From a virus (lineage: Duplodnaviria > Caudoviricetes), in IMG/VR virus record IMGVR_UViG_3300035208_002115: 64,000 bases of DNA; one strand, given 5' to 3'. The translations under genes were made by a program, and so were the position numbers. Below the pieces are notes generated by a model, which was not told the DNA's origin, searched no databases, and worked only from the letters and a program-made list of their open reading frames with translations. Positions within the stretch are counted from its first letter, which is position 1; each line of letters starts with the position of its first letter. Positions 44,713-64,000 of this stretch are shown one piece after another.

Positions 44713-45399
44713 TTATTTATTTTTTATAGCTAAACACCAAGTTATAATAGGGCATTTCACGTCATTATATCCAGCACGAGTAGAATAAGTATAATCTGAC
44801 CATAATTTATCGTGCATTTGTCTAAAATACTCCTTATTACCCCATTGTCCAATTTTAAGTATATCAAATCCAGCCAATTTAACCATTGCGCCTAAACCAA
44901 CAGGTGTAATACCAGTATAAAAATGAAATGGTGTTGAATGTGGCACATTGTCTGCTGGAACATTTGTATAAAAAATTCCACCAATTTTCAAATGATTATA
45001 AATATTTTTTATGGCTAAAATAGGATTATATAAATGTTCAATTGTTTGATTCGTCATTGCAAAATCAAAATCTTTTTTGTCTAAATCAATTTTATGTAAA
45101 TCATATTTTTCATTTTCTTCATAATTAAAATTATGAAGATTATTATATTTCATATATTCATATTCTGGGTCGCTATCTCCGTTGAATGATAAAACATCAT
45201 TAAAAGTTTTATTATATTCTAACATATATTCTCTAAATTCGAGCAAAGCTATGATTCGGGGAAAATCTTTCCCTTCCCATTTCCATTGTTTATTATTATA
45301 TTGAAGTGGTAGAGGAACGTATTTATTAGTATATTCTATTGTGTAATTTATTTTAACATAGTTGTTATAAATATCATTAATATCATTATTACTTAACAT
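44713..45399 (-). CDS. Class I SAM-dependent methyltransferase-like protein
   Basis: FDF...NQTIEHLYNP...LKIGG...P...H..P.HF. Confidence 0.75.
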   Translation of the reverse strand: MLSNNDINDIYNNYVKINYTIEYTNKYVPLPLQYNNKQWKWEGKDFPRIIALLEFREYMLEYNKTFNDVLSFNGDSDPEYEYMKYNNLHNFNYEENEKYDLHKIDLDKKDFDFAMTNQTIEHLYNPILAIKNIYNHLKIGGIFYTNVPADNVPHSTPFHFYTGITPVGLGAMVKLAGFDILKIGQWGNKEYFRQMHDKLWSDYTYSTRAGYNDVKCPIITWCLAIKNK

Positions 45400-46250: not shown

Positions 46251-46972
46251 TACATATTTCTTATTTTTTCAAATATTTTTGTTGTTGATAATTGACATTC
46301 ATTAGTGTGAGTTATATACCAACTATTATTGTGGACACGATGAATATATGATAAATCGGGTACTACCTCAATTTTAAATCCCTCCATTAACCACAGATAT
46401 GAAAAATATAAAGCATCATTAATGCTCAGTTCATTATCGATTTCTTTATTTTTTAAAATTTTTAAATAATTATTTCTATTGACAAAATAATTTCCAGTAT
46501 TTAAAAGTGCATCGAATAATTCTATATGTATAAAATTCTTCAAGGTATTTTTATTTATATCTAATCCAGTGAAGTTTTTATAATTAAGAGAAATTGTATT
46601 TTTAGCTGTGTTTTGATATAAGATTTCTGGACAATATAATATATCATCTTTCGCATCTATTCTTTTAATAATATTAATATAAGAATCATCAATAATGTTA
46701 TCTGAATCCAATAAAATGACCCAATCATTTTTACAATGTTCTACTGTTATTGTTTTATTTAATAATGGCTTAAAATTTCTTTCGTTTCGAAATATTTTAA
46801 TTTTCGTATTGTTTAATTTATCAATTTCATTTTTAAGAGTATCATAATAAGTTTGAATAGAATTATCATCTATAATTACAATTTCTTCAATAAAATCGTT
46901 ATCTAACACTTGGTTAAAAGATTCTAATGTTAATAAATGTCTATTATATGTTGGTATTGCTAATGATATCAT
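46250..46972 (-). CDS. GT2-family glycosyltransferase
   Basis: IPTYNR, IIDDNS, LLDSDN. Confidence 0.85.
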   Translation of the reverse strand: MISLAIPTYNRHLLTLESFNQVLDNDFIEEIVIIDDNSIQTYYDTLKNEIDKLNNTKIKIFRNERNFKPLLNKTITVEHCKNDWVILLDSDNIIDDSYINIIKRIDAKDDILYCPEILYQNTAKNTISLNYKNFTGLDINKNTLKNFIHIELFDALLNTGNYFVNRNNYLKILKNKEIDNELSINDALYFSYLWLMEGFKIEVVPDLSYIHRVHNNSWYITHTNECQLSTTKIFEKIRNM

Positions 46973-46978
46973 AATCTT

Positions 46979-47599
46979 TTATTTATTTTTAATATAAAGT
47001 GCATCACCCCAAGTACCACCAGCCCAAAATGTTTCAACTCTTTTGAAGTTGTAATGTTTTAATAGAAATTCATCCAATTCATCTTCTAATACACAATCTT
47101 TATATAAGTTAGCTCTATTTATTTCAGTCATTATAATATCTATTGTATTCAATGATTTTATAGCACCTTTAAAAACTTCTAATTCATATCCTTGAACATC
47201 AATATTAATAAAATTAAAATCATTTCGATTGTATGGTATATTATCCAGTTTATCAATTTCAACTTCAATTTTATCATTAAATTTAATATTTGGGTATTGT
47301 GTTACATGTAACATGGGTTCTAATAAAGATGATGATTGGCTTTCATTATCATATTCAACATACATATCAGCTTTTCCAATTTTATTACCAAGTGCTTTAT
47401 TGACAAATATTGCATTATTTTCACCAACATATTGTTTTAATTTTTCAAATGTATGAGGTAAAGGCTCAAAAAACATAACATTTTTAATATTAGCTTTTTT
47501 ATAAGCATCCATTTCCCTACCAAAGTGTGCGCCAATATGAAGAACACCTTTTAAATTCAGATTATATTTTTTTATTAAATTTTCAAGATTAAGTAACAT
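46979..47599 (-). CDS. FkbM-family methyltransferase
   Basis: HIGAHFG.E, FEP, SSSLL, NIDVQGYELEV, WGDALY. Confidence 0.88.
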   Translation of the reverse strand: MLLNLENLIKKYNLNLKGVLHIGAHFGREMDAYKKANIKNVMFFEPLPHTFEKLKQYVGENNAIFVNKALGNKIGKADMYVEYDNESQSSSLLEPMLHVTQYPNIKFNDKIEVEIDKLDNIPYNRNDFNFINIDVQGYELEVFKGAIKSLNTIDIIMTEINRANLYKDCVLEDELDEFLLKHYNFKRVETFWAGGTWGDALYIKNK

Positions 47600-48398
47600 T
47601 TTTTTTATTTTTATTTTTAAAAATCAAATCTATTTCCTGATGACATGCATTATTTTTTAAACCATCAATATTTTCTAAACTAATAATAAATCCGTCTAAA
47701 AACTTTTTATTAAGTTCTCTCACATCAATAATACCATGATAGTTTGGATTATTTGTTTGAACTTTATTACAAGGGTTATTTATAATTATCGATTTATCAT
47801 AACAAATCATTTTTGGTAAATTTATTGGTCTAATAGCCATATTACCTTCAAATGAATTAGGGTTTGTATAAGGTAAATTTAATACATAGGGAAATATCTG
47901 ATTCGTTCTGAAAATATGTCCATCTACGGACATTGGATAACCATAATCTCCACTTTCACCTTTCCACAAATAAATATTATTATCTAAGAACATTGGATTA
48001 ACCATATTTGTTTTAGATGCATATGAATGTGTTAAATCTGGTTGTAATCTTAAACTTCTACATAATATTTCATTATCTTGTTCAAATATTTCTTTTTGTT
48101 TATCATCAAAATCTATCGTGTTTTTAAATATTATATCATCAACAAAAAATACAGTGAATGCATCATATTGATTTATTAAATTTATTAAATCTGATTTGAA
48201 ATTTTCTTCTTTTTTCCACAATATATCTCCGTTTGATTCACTTATTAATTTTTCGTAACCGTTTTTAAATTTATCATCAGAATATGTGTATAAAATTTTT
48301 ATCCAATATTTATCTGGATTTTTAACATATATATTGAAGCTTCTAATGAATAACTCCAATTGCATTGCTCTATCTTTACTAAAAACTATAATATTCAT
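47589..48398 (-). CDS. Putative GT-A-fold glycosyltransferase
   Basis: FSKDRAMQL...FFVDD...YPMSVDG...PNSFE; position in glycan locus. Confidence 0.6.
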   Translation of the reverse strand: MNIIVFSKDRAMQLELFIRSFNIYVKNPDKYWIKILYTYSDDKFKNGYEKLISESNGDILWKKEENFKSDLINLINQYDAFTVFFVDDIIFKNTIDFDDKQKEIFEQDNEILCRSLRLQPDLTHSYASKTNMVNPMFLDNNIYLWKGESGDYGYPMSVDGHIFRTNQIFPYVLNLPYTNPNSFEGNMAIRPINLPKMICYDKSIIINNPCNKVQTNNPNYHGIIDVRELNKKFLDGFIISLENIDGLKNNACHQEIDLIFKNKNKKNVT

Positions 48399-49141
48399 TA
48401 TATTTTATTTATTTCAGTGTACGGAGTCTTACTTCTTATTTCTGCTGCAATTTCTAATTGTAAATTAGTATTTACATGCATCTCATTTAAAATATTCATG
48501 TCATTATACACATACAACACTTTATCAATAAATAAAAGATGATTCTTACCAGCCATTTCAATTATAGGATACATATATGCAGCATCACCAGCCATCTTAT
48601 AATATTCTCCATTAAAATCCCTTAAATCATCTTTGTTTATTAAATCGAATAATTTCTTTTTAACTGTTCGAAGATGGGATGCATACCAAGCACCACTTCT
48701 TCTATATGTTTGTGTATCTGGTATCGGTTTACAAAATTTACCGTATGTTCCACTGAAAGGAATAAAATTTCCATATGTCATATAAATATTTTCATTTTGG
48801 TAAGAGTTATTCAGATATTCGAAAACTGAATTATCATACAAAAAATCGTCCCCATCGACAGTAACTAAAATATCTTCTTTATTAAAAGAAAAGAATTCAA
48901 TACCTTTTATAAAAGTTGCCAGAGGTGAACCGACTCTGATATGATTCTGACATACATTAAAAGAATTACCAAATTCAGCATGAACTTTATTAATTACTTC
49001 ATAGGTTTTATCAGTTGAACAATCATCTATTACAACCAATTCAAAATTTTTGTAAGTTTGATTTAGTATAGATTTTAAACATTTTTCAATGAATGGTTCA
49101 GCATTATAAACAGGTACTATTACAATAAATTTATTTTTCAT
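48398..49141 (-). CDS. GT2-family glycosyltransferase
   Basis: VPVYNAE, IDDCSTD, VDGDD. Confidence 0.88.
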
Positions 49142-49142
49142 T

Positions 49143-49994
49143 TTATTTTAAAATATTTTTACACAACTTACAAAACGTTGTATTATAATCCACATAATTT
49201 TTTTCATTCAGAGTATTATTAAACATCTGTGACATTGGATGCCCACCAAACCAATGATACCCGATAGATTCTTTTGAAAATTTATTGATATCAACCCCAT
49301 ATTGATTATTATATTCTATCATCGTCCAGTCGAAATTGTAGACAGTTTCATTTTTTAAATTGAAAATATTTAATTCTGGATGTTTTTGTAGTATTTTATC
49401 TATGATGTATGGGTTCTGACGATTAGTTCCGTATATACTATAAATTAAATCAACACCAAATGATTGATAGTTATCATACTTTTCTATGTCTAAAGCATGG
49501 TCTAATATATCCTTATAAAAAGAATTACCACTTTCCGCACCCAAGAATCCGATAGTAATAAACCCTGTGTCTTGATGAATTAGTGTATCAGTATTATTTT
49601 CTATTAATTGTTTATAAAATTTATCAATTGGCCTAAAGAATAAAATGTCCATATCGGCATATATTCCACCATTAGAAAATAATTCATAATATCTGAATAT
49701 ATCACTCTCATGTACAGGTGATAAATCCTTAACCTTGTTTTTAACATCATCTGGTAAATTTATTTTTTGAACTTTTATGTTTAATTCTTCAACCTGTGAT
49801 AAATAGTTTACCCCTTTATAATTAGAGAAATCTTGTTCTTCTCTACCGTACCACTTATTCTTATTCTTATTGTCGGAAATATAAAGAGTTATGTCCCAAT
49901 CTGGGTTAAATTGTCTAAATGAAAACAGTGTCATATATCTCATCCAAGATAAATCAGAACCCGACCAATAAAAAAAAATTCTTTTAGGTATCAT
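49143..49994 (-). CDS. GT32-like (DXD sugar-binding) glycosyltransferase
   Basis: [25 protein letters not shown]. Confidence 0.8.
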
Positions 49995-50791
49995 TATAAA
50001 TCCTGTATTTTAATTTTATTTTCTTTCAATGTATAGTTGATAAAAATATCTCGATTTTTATTGAATAAATTTATCTTAGAACTATAATTAGTATTACCAT
50101 GATATTGATGAATGACGAATGGTTCATCAACCATTTTTATATTCATTTTTTTTCTTTTTATTCGAACCAAAAATTCATTATCATCGAAAGCTATTCCATT
50201 TGCAAATCGTTCATCAAATCCACCCAAATCAAATAAATCTTTTTTAGTTATAGCTGAACAAAAATGCAACTGATGAGGTCTATACTTTGAATGATTATAC
50301 CACGCTGTTTCTCCGTCTCTATTTATACCTCTATTAATCATAGGTTCAATATAATATTTTATTTTAAGTATATTAAATTCATTTTTAGAAACATAACTAA
50401 TTTTAGAAGTTAGTTTTTCATCAACAGAATAACACCCGAAATTTAAATAAACATTATCTTTAATATTTTCAGTAATATTTTTTAATAGGTCACCCATGTG
50501 GACACATTCTGGATTCTGTATGATAACAACTTCACCAGTAACCAATTTAAATCCTTTATTAAATGGAAGACTTGGATTTGTCCACCATTTATCTTTTTTT
50601 TCTATCCTTAATAATTTTATATCTAAATCAAATTTATCGATAAAATCTTCAATCCTTTGGTCATCTGTTGATGCATCATCAACTACTATAAGTTCTAAAT
50701 CCTTCTTCAATGATGATTTTTCAATAGATTTTAATGTGTTGAAGAATAATTGTTTCCTATTATAATAAGCAGTAACTAATGATATTTTCAT
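49994..50791 (-). CDS. GT2/GT7C-type glycosyltransferase
   Basis: AYYNR, VVDDAS, QNPEC.H, GGFDERF...DDNE, HQYH; paralog of 54978-55790. Confidence 0.85.
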   Translation of the reverse strand: MKISLVTAYYNRKQLFFNTLKSIEKSSLKKDLELIVVDDASTDDQRIEDFIDKFDLDIKLLRIEKKDKWWTNPSLPFNKGFKLVTGEVVIIQNPECVHMGDLLKNITENIKDNVYLNFGCYSVDEKLTSKISYVSKNEFNILKIKYYIEPMINRGINRDGETAWYNHSKYRPHQLHFCSAITKKDLFDLGGFDERFANGIAFDDNEFLVRIKRKKMNIKMVDEPFVIHQYHGNTNYSSKINLFNKNRDIFINYTLKENKIKIQDL

Positions 50792-50846
50792 TATTGAACT
50801 TAAATTTTTATTATTTATTCACACAACCGAGTTCTGTGATAAAATA

Positions 50847-50872
50847 TATAGTTAATATGATAATTTTTGTTT
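50847..50872 (-). promoter_or_regulatory. AAAC-N18-TATA putative promoter
   Basis: Conserved spacing; upstream of 50791. Confidence 0.5.
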
Positions 50873-50891
50873 AATAATCGAATAAAATTTT

Positions 50892-51545
50892 TTATAGTTT
50901 TAAATTAAATTTATCAATATCATAATTAGCTGGTATACCAATCATTTTAACTTTTACATTATCCTCGTGGACGTTCAGCAACACTTTTAAATCGTCAATA
51001 ACCACACCACTATAAACTTCACCAAGTTTTGAGTGATTATATTTATATGGTATACAAATGAAATCCTCTTTTTTCTCCATAACAGAAATAAATCCACTGG
51101 TTTTAGAAACATTCCAAATTCTTTTTTCATTAGTCAGTAAATTAAATATATTCATTTTTTTAATATCATAATAATATGGTGCTTCTTCTATAATATTTTT
51201 TTGAAGTATATCAACAAAATCATCACTTAAACAATTATCACTATCTATTCTTGTAACTAAAACATAATCTTCATCGATTAATTTATATAATTCAGGTACA
51301 ATATCATTGAAAATATTTTCTAATCCAACTTCTTCAGTCTTTATAGTATATTCATTTTCAATCATACCTTCGGGTTCATAACCCCAGAGAGTTACAAATT
51401 TAAAATTCTTATTTGTTTGAGCCTGAATTGATGCTCTTAATGTATTATTAAGAATGGTTTTACGGTTATTTAACCATTTTTCATCTTTAGAATGTTCAGT
51501 CCATCGGATATTTATTCTGCTTACTATTAAATGTGTAAAATTCAT
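50892..51545 (-). CDS. Putative rhamnosyltransferase-like (DUF3118-type) GT-A protein
   Basis: SR.N...W...R...SIQAQTNKNF...TRIDSD...H..N. Confidence 0.65.
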   Translation of the reverse strand: MNFTHLIVSRINIRWTEHSKDEKWLNNRKTILNNTLRASIQAQTNKNFKFVTLWGYEPEGMIENEYTIKTEEVGLENIFNDIVPELYKLIDEDYVLVTRIDSDNCLSDDFVDILQKNIIEEAPYYYDIKKMNIFNLLTNEKRIWNVSKTSGFISVMEKKEDFICIPYKYNHSKLGEVYSGVVIDDLKVLLNVHEDNVKVKMIGIPANYDIDKFNLKL

Positions 51546-51561
51546 ATTAAAAAATTCTTTT

Positions 51562-53220
51562 TTAAAATTCGATATATGAGTTTGTTTCTATATCAATTTT
51601 TATATTTTCATTTGTATTATAAACTCTAATTTGAGATTTATAATTGTTTCTTAATTCACTATTAAAATTGGTTTCTTTTCTTTTTGTTAGACTATTATTA
51701 TGAATTCTTCTATAAAATAAATAAGTTCCAGTTTCTTTTATTCTAACAAAATTCTGTATTCTTTTTAAGAGTTCTGTATCGGCTGCACACTTCCAACCTT
51801 TATATCCACCAGCTATATTAAATACTTTTTTTCTATAAAAAACCACACCATCTGGATATTTCAATTTATCAACATTACTAATCTTTTCATTAATATTCGT
51901 TGTGAAATTGTAACATGAGAATCTTAACAAATCACAATCATTAGATTTTTCGACAATCTCTTTTATCATATTCGGCATCATAACATCATCACTATCAAAT
52001 CGAATAATATTATCAAATTTTGCCATACGTATTAAAGTATTTGAAGTAATATATGTACCCATATTACTATTCATCATAAATATTCTCAAATTTCTATAAT
52101 ATGGCCTAATATCTATTAATTTTTTCAAAGTTGCATGACAATCATCAAACCCAACTAAAATTTCATAATTATTATGGTCATTAAAATATGTTTGGTTTTC
52201 AATAGAATCCAAACATTCTTCAATATAATCTTGTGTTTGGTATGCTGTTATAATAATTGATAATGGTTTTTTAGAATTTATATTGAAAAAATTATTGAAA
52301 ATCTTTTTTGATTTAGTTAAAAAATTTTCTTCTTTTACTAATATATCATCTTTATAATTTATATTTTCTTCAACATTTTCTTCAACATTTTTAACTACAT
52401 TATTTATTTCAACTCTATAATTATTTTCAGTTGTGTCTTTTATAATTCCTTCACCAAATGTATTTGTAGAATTTATTTTATCTATTAACTTTTCTTTTGT
52501 AAATTGTCGATAGTTGTTAGCCATCATTCTATTTGTTTTAACGTGGTCATAATAATCTGGAGATGATAGTGGGTGATATAAATGAATGCAATATTGGTTA
52601 TCCATTCTTATTGTGTTATATCCCAGTATTTTTATTTTACTATCTAAAATATCATCTTCATGTCCATACCCAAAACATTCCTCATCATAGCCTTTAATTT
52701 CAATAAATTTGTCACGTTTCATTAAAAATACACCACCAGTTACAACATATGATTGAACTTCTTTTTCAATATTATCACTCAACCGTTCGAAACCTTCTTC
52801 TATCATTCTGTCGGTTTCCATTTCATCATAATAATAAATCTTTTTATATGGGTCAATTACATCAAAATCTTTAACGTTTAATGCGTTTAAAAAGAAATCT
52901 TTTGGTAAGATGATGTCAGCATCACAAAAAACCAAAACTTCATATTTAGCATTTAAAGCTCCGATATTATAACCAAGTCCTTTATTGAAAACTCCATCAT
53001 TATAAAGAAATAATTTCTTTATATTTTTATTTTTTTTAATTTTAACACGTTCCTCTATATCTTGTTCTATTAATATTATTTCAAATTTTTCAAAACCAAA
53101 ATTTAAAACATAATCAATAACTGCTTCTAAGTCTTTTTTTCTATATCCATCATTTTCTCTATATGATATTATATAAGAAAATCCTACTTCATTAGATATT
53201 TTAGTTAATTTTTTATCCAT
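51562..53220 (-). CDS. Bifunctional glycosyltransferase (GT2/GT7C domain + GT2 domain)
   Basis: FNKG..YN.G, FCDAD, GYDE...GYGHEDD, HLYH; second domain ITAYQT, FDSDD. Confidence 0.82.
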   Translation of the reverse strand: MDKKLTKISNEVGFSYIISYRENDGYRKKDLEAVIDYVLNFGFEKFEIILIEQDIEERVKIKKNKNIKKLFLYNDGVFNKGLGYNIGALNAKYEVLVFCDADIILPKDFFLNALNVKDFDVIDPYKKIYYYDEMETDRMIEEGFERLSDNIEKEVQSYVVTGGVFLMKRDKFIEIKGYDEECFGYGHEDDILDSKIKILGYNTIRMDNQYCIHLYHPLSSPDYYDHVKTNRMMANNYRQFTKEKLIDKINSTNTFGEGIIKDTTENNYRVEINNVVKNVEENVEENINYKDDILVKEENFLTKSKKIFNNFFNINSKKPLSIIITAYQTQDYIEECLDSIENQTYFNDHNNYEILVGFDDCHATLKKLIDIRPYYRNLRIFMMNSNMGTYITSNTLIRMAKFDNIIRFDSDDVMMPNMIKEIVEKSNDCDLLRFSCYNFTTNINEKISNVDKLKYPDGVVFYRKKVFNIAGGYKGWKCAADTELLKRIQNFVRIKETGTYLFYRRIHNNSLTKRKETNFNSELRNNYKSQIRVYNTNENIKIDIETNSYIEF

Positions 53221-53693
53221 TATTTAACATATATTTTATTTTCTAAGTCGTCAAATAATATTTTAACCAATATGTCTTCACGACCTTCTCTATTATAAAT
53301 TTGATATACACTCTTACCACGTTCGAAGTTATTATCAACTAATTTTCTTAAAATTAACTCAACTATATCTTTTCGTGTTGATAAAATAAAACCATCTTTT
53401 TGTTCAAAGGCAAAATAATCTGCTTTGCCATATAACCACCCAGAATAACCTTTAATACCTTTTAATTCAATCCATGTTATTTCAAATGAAGGTTTAGCAT
53501 CATTTCTATCATCTTTCTTGGCAGCTTTTACCTCAATTTTTTTAATATCACCATCTTTTTCGACAGTATAATCGAAATGATTATATTTATCATCTTTATA
53601 ATCAGTCTTATTTACCGTAAAACCATTATTTTTAAATAATTGTACAAATTTTTCTTCTGCTAATTCACCAGCTCGTTTTTCTGCTTCAAACAT
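53220..53693 (-). CDS. PD-(D/E)xK nuclease-like phage protein
   Basis: AE..F...HFDY...IEVK...WIE...GWLYGKAD..AFE. Confidence 0.65.
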   Translation of the reverse strand: MFEAEKRAGELAEEKFVQLFKNNGFTVNKTDYKDDKYNHFDYTVEKDGDIKKIEVKAAKKDDRNDAKPSFEITWIELKGIKGYSGWLYGKADYFAFEQKDGFILSTRKDIVELILRKLVDNNFERGKSVYQIYNREGREDILVKILFDDLENKIYVK

Positions 53694-54304
53694 TTTTGTT
53701 TTTGTTTATATTTATCTTCTGCAATTTTAATGAGGTCATCATGTATAATTTCATGTTTTAAAGTTTTTATATCTTCAATTGGAACTAATACAATAACATC
53801 TATTCTACCACGTCTTCGATACCATTTATATATTCTTTCTAAAGCTGTTTTATTTTTAATTATATCATATTCACTGTCACTAAAACCATAAAAATCATTT
53901 ATATCCACATCATTATCTTTAATCATATCTTCTACAAGTTTTTTAACATCAGCTCTACCAACCATTAAAAAACCATCTATTATTTCAAATGCAATCTTAT
54001 CAGATTTTCCATTAATCCAGCCTATATTACCATTCACATTATAAAATTCAATCCATGTATAATCAAATGATATCCCACCCTTTCTTGTTATACCTTTTAT
54101 CGATTTTACTTCAATTTTTTCAATTCTTTTACTTCCATTTATTAGTTGCCCAATTCTAAAATCAAAATGGTCTTCTATATCTTCCTTAATAGATGATTTA
54201 TTTATTTTTAAGTCGGTTTTAAACAACTTAAACAACCTAAAAAATCTCTTTTGTACAATAAATCCATTTTTTTTAGATTTTGGATATTTTTTAAATGTAT
54301 TCAT
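53660..54304 (-). CDS. PD-(D/E)xK nuclease-like phage protein (paralog of 53220-53693)
   Basis: HFDF...IEVK...WIEF...GWINGKSD.IAFE...RRGR.D. Confidence 0.65.
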   Translation of the reverse strand: MNTFKKYPKSKKNGFIVQKRFFRLFKLFKTDLKINKSSIKEDIEDHFDFRIGQLINGSKRIEKIEVKSIKGITRKGGISFDYTWIEFYNVNGNIGWINGKSDKIAFEIIDGFLMVGRADVKKLVEDMIKDNDVDINDFYGFSDSEYDIIKNKTALERIYKWYRRRGRIDVIVLVPIEDIKTLKHEIIHDDLIKIAEDKYKQKQKCLKQKNELVN

Positions 54305-54981
54305 AATAATCTTTTTTGATAACCTAAGAATTCTTCCAATTCCCAGTTAATGTTTTCATTTATAAATTTCAATGATTCATCATCAATTTGTTTTTCAAAT
54401 TTTGGAATAGAACTATAAGAGGTTCTTCTATTAGTTTTGTATATTAAATATTCTTCTGATATAGTGTTCATCACCTCAATTAAATCTGAACATATATCTT
54501 CATATCTAATATATTTAATATTGGGAACAATGTTTTTTAAATTAATAAAATATTGATTCTTTAAATTTCTCAATTCAATTACATTGGATATGTTTAATAA
54601 TGTATGAGGATTCCTTTCAAAAAACATTTCTTTTTTTTGATATAATCCGTTTTCTTTATTTAAGATTTTATCATGCATACTTACCCAAGGCAATTTAATA
54701 AATTCATTTAAAGATTTATTCATTAATGAAATGTGAGCATGATGTGGGTTTTCTTGCATAGACTTAACCCAGTCATACGGATTCCTACTTAATACAATAA
54801 AAAGATATTCATTTAAATTAGCTGTATCAATACTATAAATGTTCGGGAAAAAATGTTTCCAACCTAATGTAAACACATACTGATTAATGACTAAATATTG
54901 TTTAATCGATTCTTCGAACCATTTTGAACCAGTGTGTCGCTCGGCATAAAGTTGAATATATTTTATTTTTTGCTTATTCAT
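54301..54981 (-). CDS. Sulfotransferase-like protein
   Basis: ERHTGSKW (5'-PSB-like), GWKH, RNPYDWVKS (3'-PB-like), IRYED. Confidence 0.7.
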   Translation of the reverse strand: MNKQKIKYIQLYAERHTGSKWFEESIKQYLVINQYVFTLGWKHFFPNIYSIDTANLNEYLFIVLSRNPYDWVKSMQENPHHAHISLMNKSLNEFIKLPWVSMHDKILNKENGLYQKKEMFFERNPHTLLNISNVIELRNLKNQYFINLKNIVPNIKYIRYEDICSDLIEVMNTISEEYLIYKTNRRTSYSSIPKFEKQIDDESLKFINENINWELEEFLGYQKRLL

Positions 54982-55790
54982 GTTTTAAAGTAAAAATTAT
55001 TATAGACTTTATAATCTGACACACCTCTGTCAAAAATAGCTTGATTTTTATAAAATAACTCTAAAGTGTGTTTTTTTTCATCTTCGGGTGTTAATGCATT
55101 AAAATGATAAACACTATCGTGCCACTGGTGAATAACATATGGTGAATTTATAATTATTATATTTAAATCCAATAATCTGATTCTTCTTAATATTTCATTA
55201 TCATCGAACGCAACCCCATCTTTATATTCTTCATCAAATCCACCAATTTTATATAAATTATTGGTAGTTATTGCAGCAGCAAAGTGATACCCTTTTGGAT
55301 TTATTACAGAATGATTATACCAACCATTAGAACATGCATGTGGTGGCTGACAATTATTATACACTAATTTGTTATAATTATTAACATTATATTCTTTTTC
55401 TCCAATAGAATAACATGCATATGGTATATAATTTTCATCAGTTAAATTTATATCAACATCGGATAATACATCACCCATGTGATAACATTCTGGATTCTGG
55501 AAAAGAATTTTATTATATTGCACATGATTAAATCCTATATTATATGGGACACATGAACAAGTCCATTTCTTCTGTTCTTTTTTAATATTAAAAATACGAA
55601 ACTTCAGTTTATTAAATAAAGATGGTAAATCGTCTATTGAATGTTGTTCTAAACTATTATCATTAATGATAACAATTTCTAATTTCGACCTATCATATTT
55701 AGTTTCGTTAATAGAATTTAAAGTTCTAATTAATTGCTCTCTCCTGTTATGATATGCCATAACTATTGATATACCATCAATATTTTTCAT
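54978..55790 (-). CDS. GT2/GT7C-type glycosyltransferase
   Basis: AYHNR, QNPECYH, GGFDE...DDNE, HQWH. Confidence 0.85.
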   Translation of the reverse strand: MKNIDGISIVMAYHNRREQLIRTLNSINETKYDRSKLEIVIINDNSLEQHSIDDLPSLFNKLKFRIFNIKKEQKKWTCSCVPYNIGFNHVQYNKILFQNPECYHMGDVLSDVDINLTDENYIPYACYSIGEKEYNVNNYNKLVYNNCQPPHACSNGWYNHSVINPKGYHFAAAITTNNLYKIGGFDEEYKDGVAFDDNEILRRIRLLDLNIIIINSPYVIHQWHDSVYHFNALTPEDEKKHTLELFYKNQAIFDRGVSDYKVYNNFYFKT

Positions 55791-55792: not shown

Positions 55793-56917
55793 CTAATATT
55801 TTTTTATTAGTGTTTTTAACAAATTATTATATATGCTTATATTTATTTCATTATCAGCATCATAAGAGAAAATTGTTTTTTTATTTCTTTCATTATATTC
55901 TTCCAGATTCTTGTCGTGATTTTCCAAAATCCATATTAATTTATCAGTAGCATTTTTACCATTAAACCCCTCATAATAATATCCAACATTTTTACACATG
56001 TGGGCGTTATGTAATATAGCGTGTCCAAGGTAAGCCACATCCAAATAAAAATAATTCAAAGGATTATCCCATTGGTGACTGACGACTATATCAGCATAAT
56101 CGGCTAAAAATTCAACGGTTGAAAATCTATCCTCGAATGTTGCCTTATGGTCTTTAACAATACTTAAATGATTCATGTATTCCACAAAAACTTTATGTTT
56201 TCGAATATTAAATGTATTAGTAACAAATAATTTCTCTATTAATTCTGGTCTTTGTTCATATACATCATCAACAATCAAAATCGGATACATAGCATACTTC
56301 AAAACATCTTGATTAGGTTCAAGTATTGCTATGGATTTAGGTGTGTTTTTTGGTGTGTAACGAGGGTTATTTTTTAATGATGATGCTAATTCATCAATTA
56401 AAAAAGAATCCCATATAAACGGAACAGATTTTACATTTTTATTTTTATGAAATCTATTGAAATAATATTTATTTTGTTCAAAAACCTGTGGTACACACCA
56501 TATTTCATCGTAATCTGGATTACACCATATTATAGAACTTCCAACATCTTGATTAAATAAAACATTTTCCATTCTAATAACATATTCATTACCACATTTG
56601 TACGAAACTATTTTTGTTTTTCTTTTCTTTAAGTATGTAGTCATAGATTGGTCAATCTGTCCACCGAGAGATATTAATATATCAATATCATCTTTTACAT
56701 CCGAAATATGATGTACTGGAAATTCTTTTGTATCAAATGCGAATTGAGTAAATTCTTTACTTGTTGTATTAGCGAAAAATACGTTATATTTCCCAATGTT
56801 TTTAAGAAGTTTAGCTAAATATAAACCATTTAGTTTGATGCCATTTATCCATAAACCTTCATTATTACTTCTAACACCTAATGTGATAGCAATATTCTTC
56901 ATTGTTGCAGTTGCCAT
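55793..56917 (-). CDS. DUF2827-family protein (putative GT-B glycosyltransferase)
   Basis: W.NGI, YKCGNEY, DEIW.VPQ, PFIW, EPN, DIVVSHQWDNPLNY, HN...GYYY. Confidence 0.75.
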   Translation of the reverse strand: MATATMKNIAITLGVRSNNEGLWINGIKLNGLYLAKLLKNIGKYNVFFANTTSKEFTQFAFDTKEFPVHHISDVKDDIDILISLGGQIDQSMTTYLKKRKTKIVSYKCGNEYVIRMENVLFNQDVGSSIIWCNPDYDEIWCVPQVFEQNKYYFNRFHKNKNVKSVPFIWDSFLIDELASSLKNNPRYTPKNTPKSIAILEPNQDVLKYAMYPILIVDDVYEQRPELIEKLFVTNTFNIRKHKVFVEYMNHLSIVKDHKATFEDRFSTVEFLADYADIVVSHQWDNPLNYFYLDVAYLGHAILHNAHMCKNVGYYYEGFNGKNATDKLIWILENHDKNLEEYNERNKKTIFSYDADNEINISIYNNLLKTLIKKY

Positions 56918-56930
56918 TCAAATAATATTT

Positions 56931-58562
56931 TTATTTTTTAAAATAAACACCAATAGTATTATTGCTCCAATTTTTTTGTAAATTCGGATACCTTCTAACC
57001 ATTATTTCTTCTGTTAAATCATCTTGAATGTGGTCTTCGTTTTTATTTTCGAGACCGAATTGTTTCATAAGAAATGGTACACTAATTATTAGTTGTTTAC
57101 ATTTATCATATAATTTGTTTATGAGATTTTGTGCATCTTCAATAGTCAAATGTTCTAAAATATCACCCATTATGATTATATCATAATAATCGAAATTAAA
57201 ATCTATTATATTTGTTGTATAAACTTTTCTATATTTTGTTTTTAATTTATATTTTTTTATGTATGGTTCATAAATTTCAACAGCATCGATATTTTCATAT
57301 TCACTAAGAATATTAGAATACGTCCCACAACCAGCACCAACATCTAATATGGTAACACCAGTGTTAAAATTACTTAATATATAATCCTTTATTTCTGACT
57401 TAAAAGCACCAAAACTTGTAGGAACAAAATTCGATGCTATGGATTTAGTATTAACCAGATTACATATTAGTTCATCATATTTTTTTATAACATCAATATT
57501 ATCGGTAGAATATCTATCTAATACTTTTTGATTTTTTTCATCATATTCTTCAAGATGATTATCGTGTTCGGTTAAAGCATATAATAATTGTTTTTTTCCT
57601 TCTGTCACATTAAACCCTTCATAGTAATATCCACAATCTTTACATAAATGAGCATTATGTACTAATGGATAACCTAAATATATAGCATCCAGATAGGCAT
57701 AATTTAAAGCATTTTCCCATTGATGAGATACCACTACATCAGTATGTTCAGTTAAAAACCATGTAATTGGGAATCTATTTTCAAATGTGGTCTTTTTATC
57801 TTGAACTATTGTCAAATGATTCATAATAGAAGTTAATTCTTTAGTCAATCTAACTTTTTGGGTGTTTGTTACTTTAACACTATGAAATAGTTCTGGGTGT
57901 TCCCTATATGCATCTTCTATAATTAACATCGGATACATTAAAAATTTATAAACATTTATATTGGGTTCGAATATTGAAATTTTTTTACTTAGTTTACTCG
58001 GTATGTAATAAGGATTTTTTCCCTGTTTTTTTAATTCATCTATATGGCTATTTAAAAATAAAGGATTCCACACAAAAGGTATAGTGATTGTCTCAGCATT
58101 GTGTAAAACTCTCCAGTAATGATGGTTTGTATTTTCCATTTGAGGTATATTCCATATTTGGTCTACCTCTGGGTAATCTTTTACAATATCTTGGCGATTA
58201 AATATGATATTTTCCATACTAATCACATATTCGTTACCACATTTATATGGAACTACTTTACATCCTCTATTTCTTAAATATTCTGTTGTTGGTTTATCGA
58301 TTGAACCACCTAAAGGAAATATAATATCTAATTTATCTTTTATATCATTAAATTGGACTGTTTTATATTCTATCAAATCCCACCCCAATATATTTGTAAT
58401 ATTAATATTACTCGTGTTGACAAGATATACGTTATAATTTTGAGTAGAATTTTGAAACGTTTTTGCCAAAAAAATCGCATTCTGTAATATACCATTAGTC
58501 CATACACTTTGATTTTCTTCATGTAAAAAAATTGTTATCCCAATATTTAATTTTGAATTCAT
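56931..58562 (-). CDS. DUF2827-family protein fused to a class I SAM methyltransferase domain
   Basis: DUF2827 motifs (WTNGI, EPNINVYK, SHQWENALNY) then ILDVGAGCG...GDILEHL. Confidence 0.78.
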   Translation of the reverse strand: MNSKLNIGITIFLHEENQSVWTNGILQNAIFLAKTFQNSTQNYNVYLVNTSNINITNILGWDLIEYKTVQFNDIKDKLDIIFPLGGSIDKPTTEYLRNRGCKVVPYKCGNEYVISMENIIFNRQDIVKDYPEVDQIWNIPQMENTNHHYWRVLHNAETITIPFVWNPLFLNSHIDELKKQGKNPYYIPSKLSKKISIFEPNINVYKFLMYPMLIIEDAYREHPELFHSVKVTNTQKVRLTKELTSIMNHLTIVQDKKTTFENRFPITWFLTEHTDVVVSHQWENALNYAYLDAIYLGYPLVHNAHLCKDCGYYYEGFNVTEGKKQLLYALTEHDNHLEEYDEKNQKVLDRYSTDNIDVIKKYDELICNLVNTKSIASNFVPTSFGAFKSEIKDYILSNFNTGVTILDVGAGCGTYSNILSEYENIDAVEIYEPYIKKYKLKTKYRKVYTTNIIDFNFDYYDIIIMGDILEHLTIEDAQNLINKLYDKCKQLIISVPFLMKQFGLENKNEDHIQDDLTEEIMVRRYPNLQKNWSNNTIGVYFKK

Positions 58563-58625
58563 AAATAAAAAACTATATTTTTAGATATATATCAAAATGA
58601 ATTGGGTTTCTTCTAATATTTAAAC

Positions 58626-58659
58626 AAAAAAAGAGTGTCCTTTCGAACACTCTTTTTTT
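58626..58659 (-). terminator. Intrinsic terminator after fibre gene 58677-60617
   Basis: Minus strand GAGTGTTC-GAAA-GGACACTC followed by T7. Confidence 0.8.
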
Positions 58660-58676
58660 ATTGACCTAACTTAATA

Positions 58677-60617
58677 TTATGTAGTTACTACATATTTAAT
58701 TTTAACGTCATCAGTTGTTTCGATTGCGAATCCAGCTTCTACACCATCAAAATATAATGGTGTACCAGCAGATGTTGGAGTAACACCGTTTGTATGGAAT
58801 ACAGCAGGTGAACCTTGTGCATATTCGAATGTATATTCGATACCGTTTAAAAATACTATAACAGTAGATTCATCAATTACACCCCCAGTTACACCATGTG
58901 CAAAAGCAGTACCAATATTTACAGCAGTTGTAGAACCACTAATTGCTGGTGATAATAACTGTTCAAAATAACTTGGAGCTTGAATATTACTGATTGCAGT
59001 TTCTAAAGATGTGTCAGCAGTACCTCTTGTTGATGCTTCAGTTGAAACAGCAGTTGAAATACCAGTTGCTAATGAAGTGTCAGCACTGCCTCTTGTTGAT
59101 GCCTCAGTTGAAATAGCTGTTGATAATGATGTGTCAGCAGTACCTCTTGTTGATGCTTCAGTTGAAACAGCAGTTGAAATACCAGTTGCTAATGAAGTGT
59201 CAGCACTGCCTCTTGAAGAAATTTCACCTGATAAAGCGGTTGATAATGAATCTACGCCAGCAGTTGAACCAGATGTCAAAGAAGCTATTTGTGTACTTAA
59301 CGATGTGTCGGCTGAACTTCTTATTGAAGCTTCACCAGAAATAGCAGTTGTTATTGATGTGTCAGCAGACCCTCTTGTTGATGCTTCAGTTGAAATAGCT
59401 GTTGATAATGATGTGTCAGCAGACCCTCTTGTAGATGTTTCAGATGATAAGGCAGTTGATAACGATGTATCTGATGAGTTATTAGCTGAAATAGCAGTTG
59501 ATAATGACGTGTCAGCACTACCTCTTGTTGATGTTTCAGTTGAAACAGCAGTTGATAATGATGTATCAGCAGTACCTCTTGTTGATGTTTCAGTTGAAAT
59601 AGCTGTTGATAATGAAGTGTCAGCAGTACCTCTTGTTGATGCTTCGGTTGAAACAGCAGTACTTAATGAAGTAGCAGCAGATGTATTACCAGAAATAGCA
59701 GTTGCTAATGATGTATCAGCACTGCCTCTTGTAGATGTTTCGGTTGAAACAGCAGTACTTAATGAAGTAGTAGCAGATGCGTTACCAGAAATAGCTGTTG
59801 ATAATGATGTGTCAGCAGTACCTCTTGTTGATGCTTCAGTTGAAATAGCTGTTGATAATGATGTATCTGATGAATTATTTGATGATATTTCAGATGATAA
59901 CGCAGTTGACAATGATGTTACATTACCCTGATTATTTGATATTTGAGTGATAACAGATGAAGCAACCCTTACACCAGAAGAAGTTTTACTTAGAGTACCA
60001 CCATCTAATTCAAGTGAGAAAACAGTACCAGTAAGGTCTAATCCTTCACCGTCTGTACTATATGTACCAGGCGAAGAAATCTTTACCCATCCTTGTGTAT
60101 CAACGTTAACTACAATTTCTGTTTCTGGTACAGCATCAGTAGTAGCTAAAACCCAACCAGTTTTTCCATTAACTGTTCCATTTTCAACAAATACAAAGTC
60201 ACCAGTAGAAACTTCGTTAGTTGGAGTACCATCAAAATCAAATGGTCTTATCCAAGCACCAGCCTTAACCTGCCATACACCATTAGATGGGTTTTGGTCA
60301 GTTGCACCTGCACCACCTTGATTTGTTAAAAGTACTCTATCATCTACTGATAATAAAAAATCATCAATAGTTGTTGTACCAGTTAATACTGTTGTACCAG
60401 TAGCCACAGCATGAACTGGTAAATGGGGTACTAATCCACCTGCAACTGCATCAACGTAAGCTTTGTTAACAGCTTGATTGTCAGCCGTTGGTGAACCAGA
60501 TATTATCACATTATATGTTGACATATCCAAATCACCTTGAACTACAACATTACCAGTTGCACCTTTTATAGTAACTGTTTGTTGTGCGATTTGTTTTCCT
60601 TTTAATAATTGAGCCAT
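58677..60617 (-). CDS. Fibre/decoration-like structural protein with ~300-aa SLST-repeat stalk
   Basis: MAQLLKGKQI, AVNKAYVD, DRVLL..Q...NGVW.V..GAW.R..D, repeat tract, C-terminal LNGIEY domain. Confidence 0.82.
   Translation of the reverse strand: MAQLLKGKQIAQQTVTIKGATGNVVVQGDLDMSTYNVIISGSPTADNQAVNKAYVDAVAGGLVPHLPVHAVATGTTVLTGTTTIDDFLLSVDDRVLLTNQGGAGATDQNPSNGVWQVKAGAWIRPFDFDGTPTNEVSTGDFVFVENGTVNGKTGWVLATTDAVPETEIVVNVDTQGWVKISSPGTYSTDGEGLDLTGTVFSLELDGGTLSKTSSGVRVASSVITQISNNQGNVTSLSTALSSEISSNNSSDTSLSTAISTEASTRGTADTSLSTAISGNASATTSLSTAVSTETSTRGSADTSLATAISGNTSAATSLSTAVSTEASTRGTADTSLSTAISTETSTRGTADTSLSTAVSTETSTRGSADTSLSTAISANNSSDTSLSTALSSETSTRGSADTSLSTAISTEASTRGSADTSITTAISGEASIRSSADTSLSTQIASLTSGSTAGVDSLSTALSGEISSRGSADTSLATGISTAVSTEASTRGTADTSLSTAISTEASTRGSADTSLATGISTAVSTEASTRGTADTSLETAISNIQAPSYFEQLLSPAISGSTTAVNIGTAFAHGVTGGVIDESTVIVFLNGIEYTFEYAQGSPAVFHTNGVTPTSAGTPLYFDGVEAGFAIETTDDVKIKYVVTT
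58990..59922 (-). repeat. In-frame tandem repeats (42/54/66-nt units) encoding SLST stalk
   Basis: Repeating GATGTGTCAGCAGTACCTCTTGTTGATGCTTCAGTTGAAA on the plus strand. Confidence 0.9.
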
Positions 60618-60664
60618 ATTAAAATCATATTATTTTTTGTATTATTTATTACATAATTTGATAT

Positions 60665-60674
60665 TATATATTAA
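60665..60674 (-). promoter_or_regulatory. TTAATATATA putative late promoter
   Basis: Upstream of 60617. Confidence 0.5.
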
Positions 60675-60734
60675 ATAAAAAAATAGATTTTTTTTTTATA
60701 AAATGTGTATAAAAAATAATATTCAGAAATATGA

Positions 60735-61001
60735 TTATAAAGGAGTAAAAACTGATAATTTGGGTGGTCGGATTATGAAATCACTGAAAGCTACAATATC
60801 ATAAAATTTTAAATCAATTTCGTCTAAATCATCAACCCACACATCTTCAGGTTTCATATTATTTGGTTTATTAGCATAAGCTATCACGTCACCCTTAACA
60901 TGGAGTATATTTTTTTCTACTAAAGAAGGATATATTCTAACATCACTTTTTGCATAAAGATTACCTTCTATTAAATATGTATTATCAGATATTTTTTTCA
61001 T
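60735..61001 (-). CDS. Small hypothetical protein
   Basis: 88-aa ORF; LHVKGDVIAY-type repeats. Confidence 0.6.
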   Translation of the reverse strand: MKKISDNTYLIEGNLYAKSDVRIYPSLVEKNILHVKGDVIAYANKPNNMKPEDVWVDDLDEIDLKFYDIVAFSDFIIRPPKLSVFTPL

Positions 61002-61005
61002 GTTT

Positions 61006-62127
61006 TTAGGATTTAATTATATTAAATATACACTTTTCATATTCTTCAATAATGTTTTCATTATCAATAGAGTAAATATTTAATATGTTATCACATTGGT
61101 CATTGTATTTATTGACAAAACTTTGATGTTTTGTTATGGCCTGTAATAATTTATTACTTCCCTCAGATAAATTAAATTCTGGATAATAATATAAAGTGTT
61201 TATTTTAGGAGAATTATGTACTAACGGGAATTTAGTATATAAACAATCAAAATATGTATTACTTAAATCATTTTCAAATTGATTAGATACAACTATATCT
61301 GTATAATTACTCAGAATAAATGGTGTTGTATATCTTTCTTCAAATGTTATTTTATTATCCTGTTTTAATTTTAATGTGTTAACAAATGATAAAAATCTTG
61401 GATTTTTATAAAATTTATAAGAATTTAATACTCTGACCTTATCTATAAGTTCGGGTCTTAAATTGTATAACTTCTCAACCAATAATATAGAATGAAGTGA
61501 ATTTTTTAAAATAGTATTATTTTCTTCGAATATGGTTATATCGACACCCCCTCTATTTTTCCTATTATATTTGACATCACTATATTGTAGTTTGACATCA
61601 TTATCAATCATACTTTCTTCATATTTCTTAATGAAAAAATTATCCCATATATAAGGCAAGAATTTAACTTCCTTTTTATAAAGATTTTCTAAATAATATT
61701 TATTTAATTTTTCATTATTAGAGAACGACCATATTTCGTCATAATCATCGTATGCTATAATACTTTTTTTATTCTCAAAAAGAATGTCTTCCGAATCAGA
61801 AATAAAAGCATTTTCAATTTTAAATAATACAATTTTTGTTTTACATAATTTTAATACGGTAAAATACTCATTAGATAATTTTTTACCCATTTCTATGAAC
61901 AAATCAAAATGTATATCATTTACTGGGTCTACAAACTCAACATTTTTAAATAAATCTGGAATGTCAGTATCCAAAGTATCAATTGGCACACCAAAATTTA
62001 CAATATATGTATTTACATCTGGTATTTTTTTTAATAGAAAATAGAGAAAAAAAATTTTTTGAATTTCACCATCTGACCATATATTAAATTTATTATCATT
62101 GACTCCGAAAGAAATACCGATATTCAT
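61006..62127 (-). CDS. DUF2827-family protein (divergent third copy)
   Basis: WSDGEIQ, DEIW, PYIW, FEEN, DIVVSNQFENDLSN, PLVHNS, YYYP. Confidence 0.7.
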   Translation of the reverse strand: MNIGISFGVNDNKFNIWSDGEIQKIFFLYFLLKKIPDVNTYIVNFGVPIDTLDTDIPDLFKNVEFVDPVNDIHFDLFIEMGKKLSNEYFTVLKLCKTKIVLFKIENAFISDSEDILFENKKSIIAYDDYDEIWSFSNNEKLNKYYLENLYKKEVKFLPYIWDNFFIKKYEESMIDNDVKLQYSDVKYNRKNRGGVDITIFEENNTILKNSLHSILLVEKLYNLRPELIDKVRVLNSYKFYKNPRFLSFVNTLKLKQDNKITFEERYTTPFILSNYTDIVVSNQFENDLSNTYFDCLYTKFPLVHNSPKINTLYYYPEFNLSEGSNKLLQAITKHQSFVNKYNDQCDNILNIYSIDNENIIEEYEKCIFNIIKS

Positions 62128-62230: not shown

Positions 62231-62584
62231 ATGGACACAATTACTCTCGATATTCAGAATAAGAATGAAGCATTAGATTTTCTAATACAAGAAATACGAA
62301 TTATAAAAATTCAAAATCCACAAATAAATAATATAGTAACTAATAACAAGGTGGTATCTGGATTTGAAAATCTATCACATGAAAGTATTAAAACACATTT
62401 TATACCTTCAGATACCACTGATAATAAAACGATAATTCGTAAATTTTTATTAGATGATATCGAAATATCACTTGATACACAAATGGTATATGAAGATGTC
62501 AGATTAATATTTAACGAATGTGATAATATTATATTGGAAATGAATATTAACGATATGTATAATAATTTGGGGAGTAAGGGTTAA
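62231..62584 (+). CDS. Hypothetical protein
   Basis: 117-aa ORF with promoter motif and downstream terminator. Confidence 0.65.
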   Translation: MDTITLDIQNKNEALDFLIQEIRIIKIQNPQINNIVTNNKVVSGFENLSHESIKTHFIPSDTTDNKTIIRKFLLDDIEISLDTQMVYEDVRLIFNECDNIILEMNINDMYNNLGSKG

Positions 62585-62669: not shown

Positions 62670-64000
62670 CTAAACCAATGAGATATATGAGTATTTAATT
62701 ACAATTAAATCAATACCCGATTCTATTCCAAACCCACCTTCCGTTGCATCATAAAATAAGGTTGAACCTTGGACGGCAGGGAAAGCATTAAAATAAAATG
62801 GCATGTTAGTTTGGCTTGAAGTTGACATACTTATTAAATATTCAACACCGTTAATACTTGCTTGTACTGGAGTTATTGGTTCGTATGTTAAAACTAAACC
62901 AGTTGAGCCAGTTGTACCAGTAACTATTGTTGCTGAATATGTTGATTGAATCCAGATTTGTGAACCTCTCAACTCATCATTAACTATTTTTAATGTATAG
63001 TTATCAACATTTACGTTTAATTCCTGATTGCCATTATCATTATATGTTAAACCAGAACCAGCAGTCTGAGCAGTAACACCACTTAAATTGTTAATTACAG
63101 TTTCTAATGATGTATCACCAGATAATCTATTTGATATTTCAGTTGAAATAGCAGTAGATAAAGAAGTATCATCATAAGTATTACCTGTTATTACATTTGA
63201 TAATGCAGTAGATAACGAAGTAGTTTCACTACTTAATACCGTAATAGTCGAACTATTTGTTGATATTACAGTTTCTAAAGATGTTAATCCTGTTACAGCG
63301 TTCCCAATTGATGTTTCTAATGATGTTGTATAACCAGTTGTAATTTGTAAAGTGTTAGTCGAAATTTCGATAGTCACACCATCAACACTAACGTTTAATT
63401 CCTGATTACCATTATCATTATAAGTTAAACCAGAACCAGCAGTCTGAGCAGTAACACCACTTAGATTGTTAATTACTGTTTCTAACGATGTATCACCACC
63501 AGCTCTTGTTGATGATTCAGTTGAAATTGCAGTAGACAAAGAAGTATCATCATAGGTATTACCTGTAATGAAATTTGATAATTCTGTTTCTAATGATGTT
63601 AAACCTGTTATAGAATTGCTTATAGCAGTTGTTAATGAAGAAACACCAGTACTAATTTCAGTTTCTAAAGATGAAATACTACTTGTTAAGGATTCAGTTG
63701 TAGCACTCAACGCAAAAATATCTGTAACCACTGGTGTTGCAAGTCTTAAACCATCAACACTCTGATATAAACCAGAATTATAATTATGAAAAGTAGTACC
63801 ACTAAATTCAGTTTCATTTAATTCAACAGAAAAAATATCACCATTTAATTTAAGTGCATTTCCATCAGCAGTATAAGCTTTACTTGTAGCAAAAATTGTC
63901 CAAACCTGACTATCAACACCAACAGTAATATAACCTTGTGAATTTAATGAACTTGAATTACTAATAACCCAAGATGTCGCAACATTAGTTTCACCCGATG
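62670..64000 (-). CDS. Fibre/decoration-like protein, paralog of 58677-60617; 5' end beyond the window
   Basis: Frame stays open past the track's GTG at 63731 to the edge (SGETNVATSWVIS...YTADGNALKLNGDIFSVEL); SLST/SLET repeats; INGVEY...GFGIE...IKY C-terminus. Confidence 0.8.
   Translation of the reverse strand, partial: SGETNVATSWVISNSSSLNSQGYITVGVDSQVWTIFATSKAYTADGNALKLNGDIFSVELNETEFSGTTFHNYNSGLYQSVDGLRLATPVVTDIFALSATTESLTSSISSLETEISTGVSSLTTAISNSITGLTSLETELSNFITGNTYDDTSLSTAISTESSTRAGGDTSLETVINNLSGVTAQTAGSGLTYNDNGNQELNVSVDGVTIEISTNTLQITTGYTTSLETSIGNAVTGLTSLETVISTNSSTITVLSSETTSLSTALSNVITGNTYDDTSLSTAISTEISNRLSGDTSLETVINNLSGVTAQTAGSGLTYNDNGNQELNVNVDNYTLKIVNDELRGSQIWIQSTYSATIVTGTTGSTGLVLTYEPITPVQASINGVEYLISMSTSSQTNMPFYFNAFPAVQGSTLFYDATEGGFGIESGIDLIVIKYSYISLV
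63013..63570. repeat. Internal duplication with 378-nt (126-aa) period
   Basis: ITGNTYDDTSLSTAISTE...INNLSGVTAQTAGSGLTYNDNGNQELNV twice; copies begin at 63013 and 63391. Confidence 0.85.

Follow-up and report, generated by a model that had tools for sequence, protein, structure and literature searches.

DUF2827 genes accompany serine-rich coiled-coil fibers in viruses and bacteria and may encode the glycosyltransferases that modify them

We analyzed a 64,000-nucleotide stretch of viral DNA, here called the window, from the IMG/VR record IMGVR_UViG_3300035208_002115. The whole record is 675,678 bp long with 27% GC and 40 tRNA genes, is rated 98% complete, and encodes a Gp23-type capsid protein and a terminase; its source is a megaphage. 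Nearly all genes lie on the minus strand from ~33 kb to past the window end. In the direction of transcription they form a virion-type gene block, a group of DUF2827 and fiber genes, a long run of glycosyltransferase (GT), methyltransferase and nucleotide-sugar genes, and then more fiber genes. The second group contains three genes of the Pfam family DUF2827 (PF10933), all on the minus strand, which we named A (window positions 55793-56917), B (56931-58562) and C (61006-62127). They flank a gene for a fiber with Ser-Leu-Ser-Thr (SLST) repeats. As a preliminary description of the sequence had stated, the order is C (373 residues), an open reading frame (ORF) of 88 residues, the fiber (646 residues), B (543 residues), A (374 residues) and the GT run. 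That description had also proposed that DUF2827 initiates glycosylation of SLST coils. With some reserve, we consider it probable that DUF2827 adds the first sugar to serines of coiled-coil surface fibers, be they those of phages, of giant viruses or of bacterial trimeric adhesins.

All three DUF2827 genes are intact and full length. A, B and C score 354, 394 and 252 bits against PF10933 (cut-off 25), with matches that span model positions 1 to 361 or 362. They are 30-44% identical to one another, and the 675,678-bp genome has no further member of the family. Copy A keeps the near-invariant residues N25, G26, N30, G109, E200, N202, K207, R264, N285, N288, H303 and N304 together with D293 of the acidic pair, and its ratio of non-synonymous to synonymous substitution rates (dN/dS) is 0.06-0.11. 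In copy B the DUF2827 part (residues 7-366) is joined to a C-terminal class I S-adenosylmethionine methyltransferase domain (~57075-57386). This fusion, which had been recognized beforehand, was recovered with a methyltransferase match of E 6e-5 to 1e-4, below the curated cut-off, and is also present in the sister phages L001 and L002. B is the most canonical copy, deviating at 4 of 50 conserved columns (A at 9, C at 17, median 2). DUF2827 is fused to extra domains of 200-300 residues in several other viruses too (L068 3721-5502, L080 2193-3974, L188 11303-13105, L044 9995-12043, and P0128, where the extra domain is a methyltransferase). The PHROGs database has no family for DUF2827, and we rejected the JGI label 'RNA polymerase subunit epsilon' carried by an orthologue of A (P0001).

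SLST-type repeats occur in five genes of the genome, all in the window or at its edge, and their products are the candidate acceptors. The gene between B and C (58677-60617, minus strand) encodes an N-terminal virion domain, a Ser/Thr coiled-coil stalk and a C-terminal domain; its neighbors in the Atlas are viral fiber-like clusters. Because the N-terminal domain matches the PHROG head-decoration family phrog_2647 (E 2e-18), the protein may, from its sequence, be a head fiber and not a tail fiber. In other phages, a coil gene and DUF2827 adjoin genes that, by inspection, look like scaffold and capsid genes. The stalk contains an unbroken SLST run (58959-59918, minus strand) of 17 units of 18, 14 or 22 residues, 320 residues long and 48% Ser+Thr. 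This is the longest run in the genome, and in that sense the gene is the longest SLST-repeat gene, as had been claimed; by length or count it is not, because the gene at 23837-26143 is longer (768 residues) and has more exact SLST words (16 versus 13), with a run of 240 residues. The 14-residue units of the stalk resemble in length the 14-residue SLST units of bacterial adhesins at loci L151 and L091, some with Asn at the same place, but the 18-residue viral unit has no match in bacteria. A second SLST-type fiber gene (701 residues, minus strand) lies upstream of C, with its 3' part at 62670-64000 and its start outside the window at 64775; C sits between this gene and the 58677 gene. The other three, also on the minus strand, are at 28481-33175, 23837-26143 and 20788-22638, the last with an S74 chaperone domain.

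An alignment-based model of copy A (mean predicted local distance difference test score, pLDDT, 94; predicted template modeling score 0.91) has two Rossmann-like domains over the whole chain. The GT-B fold had been named beforehand as a point on which the idea could fail; the model matched GT-B structures over its full length. The top matches were of GT4 type, the best being BshA (Z 25.0, root-mean-square deviation 4.0, 328 residues aligned). Protein glycosyltransferases ranked lower (SdgB Z 20.3, SPY 19.7, NGT 19.0, GtfA 18.9), and the T4 alpha-glucosyltransferase was also among the matches (Z 20.5). The nearest viral model was an uncharacterized protein of Pyramimonas orientalis virus (template modeling score 0.82). 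Two donor motifs have been described in GT4 enzymes: Arg/Asn..Lys after the first strand of the C-terminal domain, and an acidic-x7-Glu pair (PMC8231724). We mapped them onto copy A by spacing and secondary structure, with no superposition: G26 lies in the first loop, N202..K207 is spaced by five residues, as is the Arg..Lys pair of GT4 enzymes, and N285-x7-D293 stands in place of the acidic pair. By the same spacing, Asn replaces the first acidic residue of that pair in DUF2827. A Pfam scan of A, B and C gave no match to GT4 or another GT family, and phmmer and profile searches of the PDB with DUF2827 found nothing relevant. A single-sequence model of copy B (pLDDT 32) was set aside. Judging from the model of A, DUF2827 is very likely a glycosyltransferase.

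DUF2827 is common in uncultured viruses, with 198 confirmed stretches. In a GenBank-derived collection of 50,697 deposited phage records it had 0 matches, so its pairing with fibers in phages may have been missed. Co-occurrence of DUF2827 with Ser-rich repeat coils had likewise been chosen in advance as a test that could refute the idea, and it was found, with controls, in both viruses and bacteria. In the forward direction, a coil profile built solely from loci without DUF2827 detected the coil in 36 of 83 viral DUF2827 loci and in 0 of 77 control loci. In about 11 further viral DUF2827 loci, a related coil rich in Ser lies 80-115 bp upstream. In the reverse direction, viral loci were found by the coil alone, and removal of seed loci and truncated contigs left 42 usable clusters. 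DUF2827 lay within 10 kb in 20 of these clusters, and in 15 of the 20 within 250 bp. It was near 0 of 42 clusters that have the fiber's N-terminal domain but no coil (Fisher 1e-7, relatedness of clusters not removed), and DUF2827 was absent throughout five large contigs of the control set (184-424 kb, two of them nearly complete). The linked set spans 23-65% GC and includes T4-like phages, small phages of 64-65% GC and giant-virus contigs, with a median DUF2827 identity of 29%. The two sets of controls (0/42 and 0/77) indicate that it is the coil that predicts DUF2827, rather than the gene family or the neighborhood.

In bacteria, an SLST protein is encoded within 10 kb in 60 of 80 DUF2827 loci, most of which have three or four deep DUF2827 paralogs; the exceptions that we checked have SLST repeats elsewhere in the genome. 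Among 60 Burkholderiaceae genomes, an SLST match was present in 6 of 10 with DUF2827 and in 0 of 50 without it (p 4e-6), and in an even order-level sample of 120 genomes the same two have both DUF2827 and SLST repeats. Adjacency alone does not explain the link, since in G081 and G199 DUF2827 lies hundreds of kb from the matched repeat genes. The linkage with SLST adhesins in Burkholderia, which the preliminary description had wanted checked, is real. It is also already in a preprint (Dorison et al., bioRxiv 10.64898/2026.01.22.700529), the available text of which presents DUF2827, from structural homology, as a putative glycosyltransferase beside trimeric autotransporter adhesins. O-glycosylation of Burkholderia SLST repeats has been suggested without evidence (PMC7142374). 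An Acinetobacter adhesin beside a single DUF2827 gene has plain Ser/Ala repeats, not SLST. What the partners in bacteria share with those in viruses is richness in Ser and Ser-Leu.

Adjacency to fibers could also arise from the clustering of late or accessory genes, with an enzyme that acts on phage DNA, host surface polysaccharide or a small molecule. The presence of the T4 alpha-glucosyltransferase among the fold matches and the clustering of GTs in large phages are compatible with such a substrate, but the 0/42 and 0/77 controls come from the same kind of structural neighborhood, and the bacterial co-occurrence with SLST adhesins holds at the level of the genome, in trans too. An unrelated substrate is strongly disfavored, and we give it very little chance.

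SLST had been put forward as the target of modification. The partners are indeed Ser-rich coils, but the viral target looks broader, and its constant feature is a Ser just before the core Leu/Ile. In the linked viral coils, the position before the core Leu is fixed as Ser at 90%, and the one that follows the next core residue at 79%. The Ser+Thr total, which lies between 13 and 56% in these coils, fails to separate linked from unlinked loci. The Ser before the core Leu is the best candidate for the modification site, as far as the sequences indicate.

That the linkage tracks the coil even at 13-20% Ser+Thr would also suit a GT-fold protein that mainly helps long trimeric coils to fold or assemble, or an enzyme that modifies a residue other than Ser/Thr (a core Asn, or the conserved Arg/Asp of the viral repeat); the cytoplasmic N-glycosyltransferases of adhesins are GT-B enzymes as well. 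A J-domain protein moreover travels with DUF2827. The window encodes a J-domain-like protein (33552-34217, minus strand; weak PF00226 match below cut-off, HPD motif present), and neighbor clustering places homologues of this protein no more than 3 kb from DUF2827 in 51 viral loci, many of which are related; these homologues are the second commonest viral neighbor. Homology to the 33552 ORF was shown for L036 and L044. This protein is possibly a folding helper for the fibers. A chaperone or a modifier of other residues accords poorly with the donor-site residues E200, N202, K207, N288, H303 and N304, which are conserved at 99-100% across the family columns. The Ser richness and Ser-Leu shared by bacterial and viral partners, the plain Ser/Ala repeats of the Acinetobacter adhesin and the occurrence of coils without DUF2827 also count against it, and we regard both variants together as rather unlikely.

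Whether DUF2827 would add the first sugar or a later one bears on a further alternative, in which it extends or caps the fiber glycan after a host enzyme or an enzyme of the GT run has started it. Its closest structures are GT4 enzymes with sugar or small-molecule acceptors, many other GTs lie next door in this phage, and three or four deep bacterial paralogs would suit successive steps. On the other hand, four small phage contigs (records 19-78% complete) have a single DUF2827 gene directly after the coil gene, with no GT2 or GT4 gene found, and no other GT family recurs among the bacterial neighbors (clusters judged by inspection). We favor initiation because of these small incomplete contigs, and consider a purely extending or capping enzyme unlikely.

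Initiation might proceed as follows. DUF2827 would be a cytoplasmic, GT4-like family of GT-B enzymes that acts on the virion fibers of phages and giant viruses and on the stalks of bacterial trimeric autotransporter adhesins. In this phage, the five SLST fibers would be O-glycosylated in the host cytoplasm, before or during assembly, by homo- or heterodimers of A and B, which would take the sugar from a nucleotide donor; the likeliest site is the Ser that precedes each core Leu/Ile. The run of GT, methyltransferase and sulfotransferase-like enzymes would then extend and decorate the glycan, which the methyltransferase domain of B may cap. The dimers would be head-to-tail, with C as an accessory subunit that is catalytically impaired or re-specialized. 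The end product would be a glycan-coated fiber, the coat perhaps serving shielding, solubility or adhesion. In its fullest form, the proposal has DUF2827 as a new GT family that initiates O-glycosylation at Ser-Leu of trimeric coils, is carried between bacteria, tailed phages and giant viruses as a two-gene cassette with the fiber gene, acts as a head-to-tail dimer with specializable subunits, and in this phage starts an extended, methylated glycan coat on the virion fibers; the chances for and against this whole seem to us evenly balanced.

Copy C is a degenerate but selected paralog and the candidate for such an impaired or re-specialized subunit. Its departures from the 50 conserved columns (17 in all) include, in A numbering, N25D, N30K, G109E, P201E, H281N, N288S and Y289N; it keeps E200, N202, K207, R264, N285 and D293. 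It is the most degenerate of the 290 sequences in our first set and forms its own clade, with a long branch on C and its orthologue. Comparison with that 80%-identical orthologue gave a dN/dS of 0.13, which indicates purifying selection and rules out a decaying pseudogene. The position between two fiber genes is kept in relatives L164 and L165 (81% and 43% identity), and P0126, a member of the C lineage, has lost even E200, K207 and R264. When copy C alone was scanned against viral sequences, no relative turned up; the orthologues of C came from a protein search. Degenerate motifs had been reported for this copy before. The degeneracy is real at other positions, but the quoted His-to-Asn change is not diagnostic: copies that are otherwise canonical, or the sole one, have it too (L105, L151, L142, L181 and L233), and we rejected it as proof of a dead enzyme.

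A modeled complex of A and C scored 0.79, against 0.00 for the best control; the mark it reached was attained by 58 of 80 pairs with a solved structure and by 2 of 110 mismatched ones; these counts are rough here, as the alignments were our own. Between runs, at least 90% of contacts agree, and the pLDDT of the partner is 86 or more. The modeled interface is head-to-tail and pseudo-symmetric: each chain places its helix 111-123 against residues 202-250 of its partner. A stricter form of the favored reading, close to the analogy drawn in the preliminary description, would make C the obligate non-catalytic, acceptor-binding partner of A or B, as in the GtfA/GtfB pair. The extreme degeneracy of C under purifying selection, its fixed place between two fiber genes, the further losses in P0126 and the predicted docking on A are in keeping with it. 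GtfA and GtfB, however, rely on the domain DUF1975 for binding to each other and to the acceptor (PMC6973325), and DUF2827 has no such domain, since PF10933 fills the whole 374-residue chain and leaves no room for it. C is also dispensable, for it is missing from the sister genome G002 (640 kb, complete), in which A, B and the fibers are present. On these two grounds C is no GtfB, and the analogy extends only part of the way. In addition, C retains the presumed donor-binding Lys, Arg and Asp, sole DUF2827 copies as divergent as C exist in other viruses, and single copies are the viral rule (73 of 83 and 27 of 37 loci). An obligate partnership is in our view quite unlikely. Going by the modeled complex, the likeliest arrangement is that DUF2827 is a dimeric enzyme and C an optional subunit, impaired or re-specialized.

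Several observations weigh against serine glycosylation by DUF2827, or against parts of the scheme. About half of the coil lineages have no nearby DUF2827 (3 of 9 that we checked carry it elsewhere on the contig), and the complete 52-kb phage G008 has a coil and no DUF2827. The viral clusters are not fully independent. Viral and bacterial repeats differ in sequence, and none of the 80 bacterial loci is matched by the viral coil profile. The coil may keep its fixed Ser for structural reasons, as a small residue. The nearest structures are GT4 enzymes that act on small molecules or lipids, not protein glycosyltransferases, so the fold does not give the acceptor, and a literature search found no biochemical or glycoproteomic evidence on DUF2827. 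As for the dimer, 41 of the 44-49 interface columns in the A+C model are the same on both sides; because both chains use these 41 columns, the interface is possibly the ordinary dimer surface of the family, and the pass of A+C may reflect such a family-wide homodimer surface, as close cousins are known to pass.

The remaining genes around the DUF2827 cluster are as follows. The GT run (39842-55790, minus strand) begins 2 bases past copy A and has Pfam matches to GT2, GT7-like, GT32, GT47 and GT31-like enzymes, methyltransferases, a sulfotransferase-like protein and UDP-GlcNAc 2-epimerase; its genes are candidates for extending and decorating a glycan. Further on, an RmlD-like reductase and a Polysacc_synt_2 dehydratase (34733-36615, minus strand) are candidates for nucleotide-sugar supply. 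The dehydratase, the reductase, UDP-GlcNAc 2-epimerase and a sugar C-methyltransferase at 34733-42690 (minus strand) suggest that unusual nucleotide sugars are produced by the phage itself. Near viral DUF2827, sulfotransferase-like genes occur repeatedly (54301-54981, minus strand, in the window; L005 1643-2326; L036 7416-8237), with a Pfam match that is faint in the window and has E 5e-4 in L005, hinting at sulfated glycans. Two ORFs within the GT run (53220-54304, minus strand), one with a faint PD-(D/E)XK nuclease match, look mobile because L001 carries one and L002 neither. The 88-residue ORF between C and the fiber gene (60735-61001, minus strand) matches no family and is probably outside the system, since a GIY-YIG-like ORF takes its place in L164. 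An ORF of 117 residues on the opposite strand (62231-62584, plus strand), between C and the upstream fiber gene, was not seen in L164 and L165.

Other features of the phage are more distant. A DUF5122 beta-propeller gene (22683-23834, minus strand) lies amid the fiber genes. A complete hybrid histidine kinase (16574-18841, plus strand) has three PAS domains, HisKA, HATPase and a receiver, and a similar gene appears to be present in L175. Among the 40 tRNA genes, ARAGORN reported one with a TTA anticodon, which would read the UAA stop (record positions 37754-37827, minus strand, outside the window); even so, the genes in the window read normally under table 11.

Heavily glycosylated fibers are established for giant eukaryotic viruses. 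If the proposal is right, many uncultured tailed phages encode them too, and DUF2827 gains a function and an acceptor motif as one more glycosyltransferase family. It would also name the enzymes for the suggested O-glycosylation of Burkholderia SLST adhesins (PMC7142374), which could be tested in culturable non-pathogenic relatives, and glycoengineering would gain a tool in a cytoplasmic enzyme whose acceptor is a coiled-coil repeat that can be designed.

The kind of system, a dedicated cytoplasmic glycosylation of Ser-rich repeat fibers, is itself already known. Compared with the retaining GT4 enzymes BshA, MshA, PimA and PglA, DUF2827 shows whole-length structural matches (Z 21-25) and similar donor-motif spacing, but it is only 10-15% identical to them, has Asn for the first acidic residue and often Cys for the conserved His (both mapped by spacing), and has no Pfam GT4 match. 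With GtfA/GtfB and SdgA/SdgB it shares a cytoplasmic GT-B fold of GT4 type (Z 18.9 and 20.3), a nearby Ser-rich repeat surface protein, paralog pairs and further GTs in the locus; it differs from them in its length of ~370 residues, the lack of DUF1975 and of any sequence match, its coiled-coil partner and the frequency of single copies. In mycobacteriophages, virion proteins are likewise glycosylated by phage-encoded enzymes (Freeman et al. 2023, as cited in PMC12363180 and PMC12619734). The targets there are capsid and tail-tube proteins, and the available text of these two articles does not report the enzymes as DUF2827, whereas the candidate targets here are repeat fibers with dozens of sites. 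The bacterial genes of Dorison et al. belong to the same Pfam family, in two or three successive cytoplasmic copies proposed to glycosylate the adjacent adhesin. Bacterial adjacency, copy number and the glycosyltransferase proposal are thus already known from the available text of that preprint (bioRxiv 10.64898/2026.01.22.700529), which concerns bacteria and names no acceptor motif; our genes are viral, their partner is a virion fiber instead of an autotransporter, and controls narrow the link to the Ser-rich coil. What the present analysis adds is co-occurrence tested with controls both forward and in reverse, a partner narrowed to that coil, the dispensability of C and a model of the dimer.

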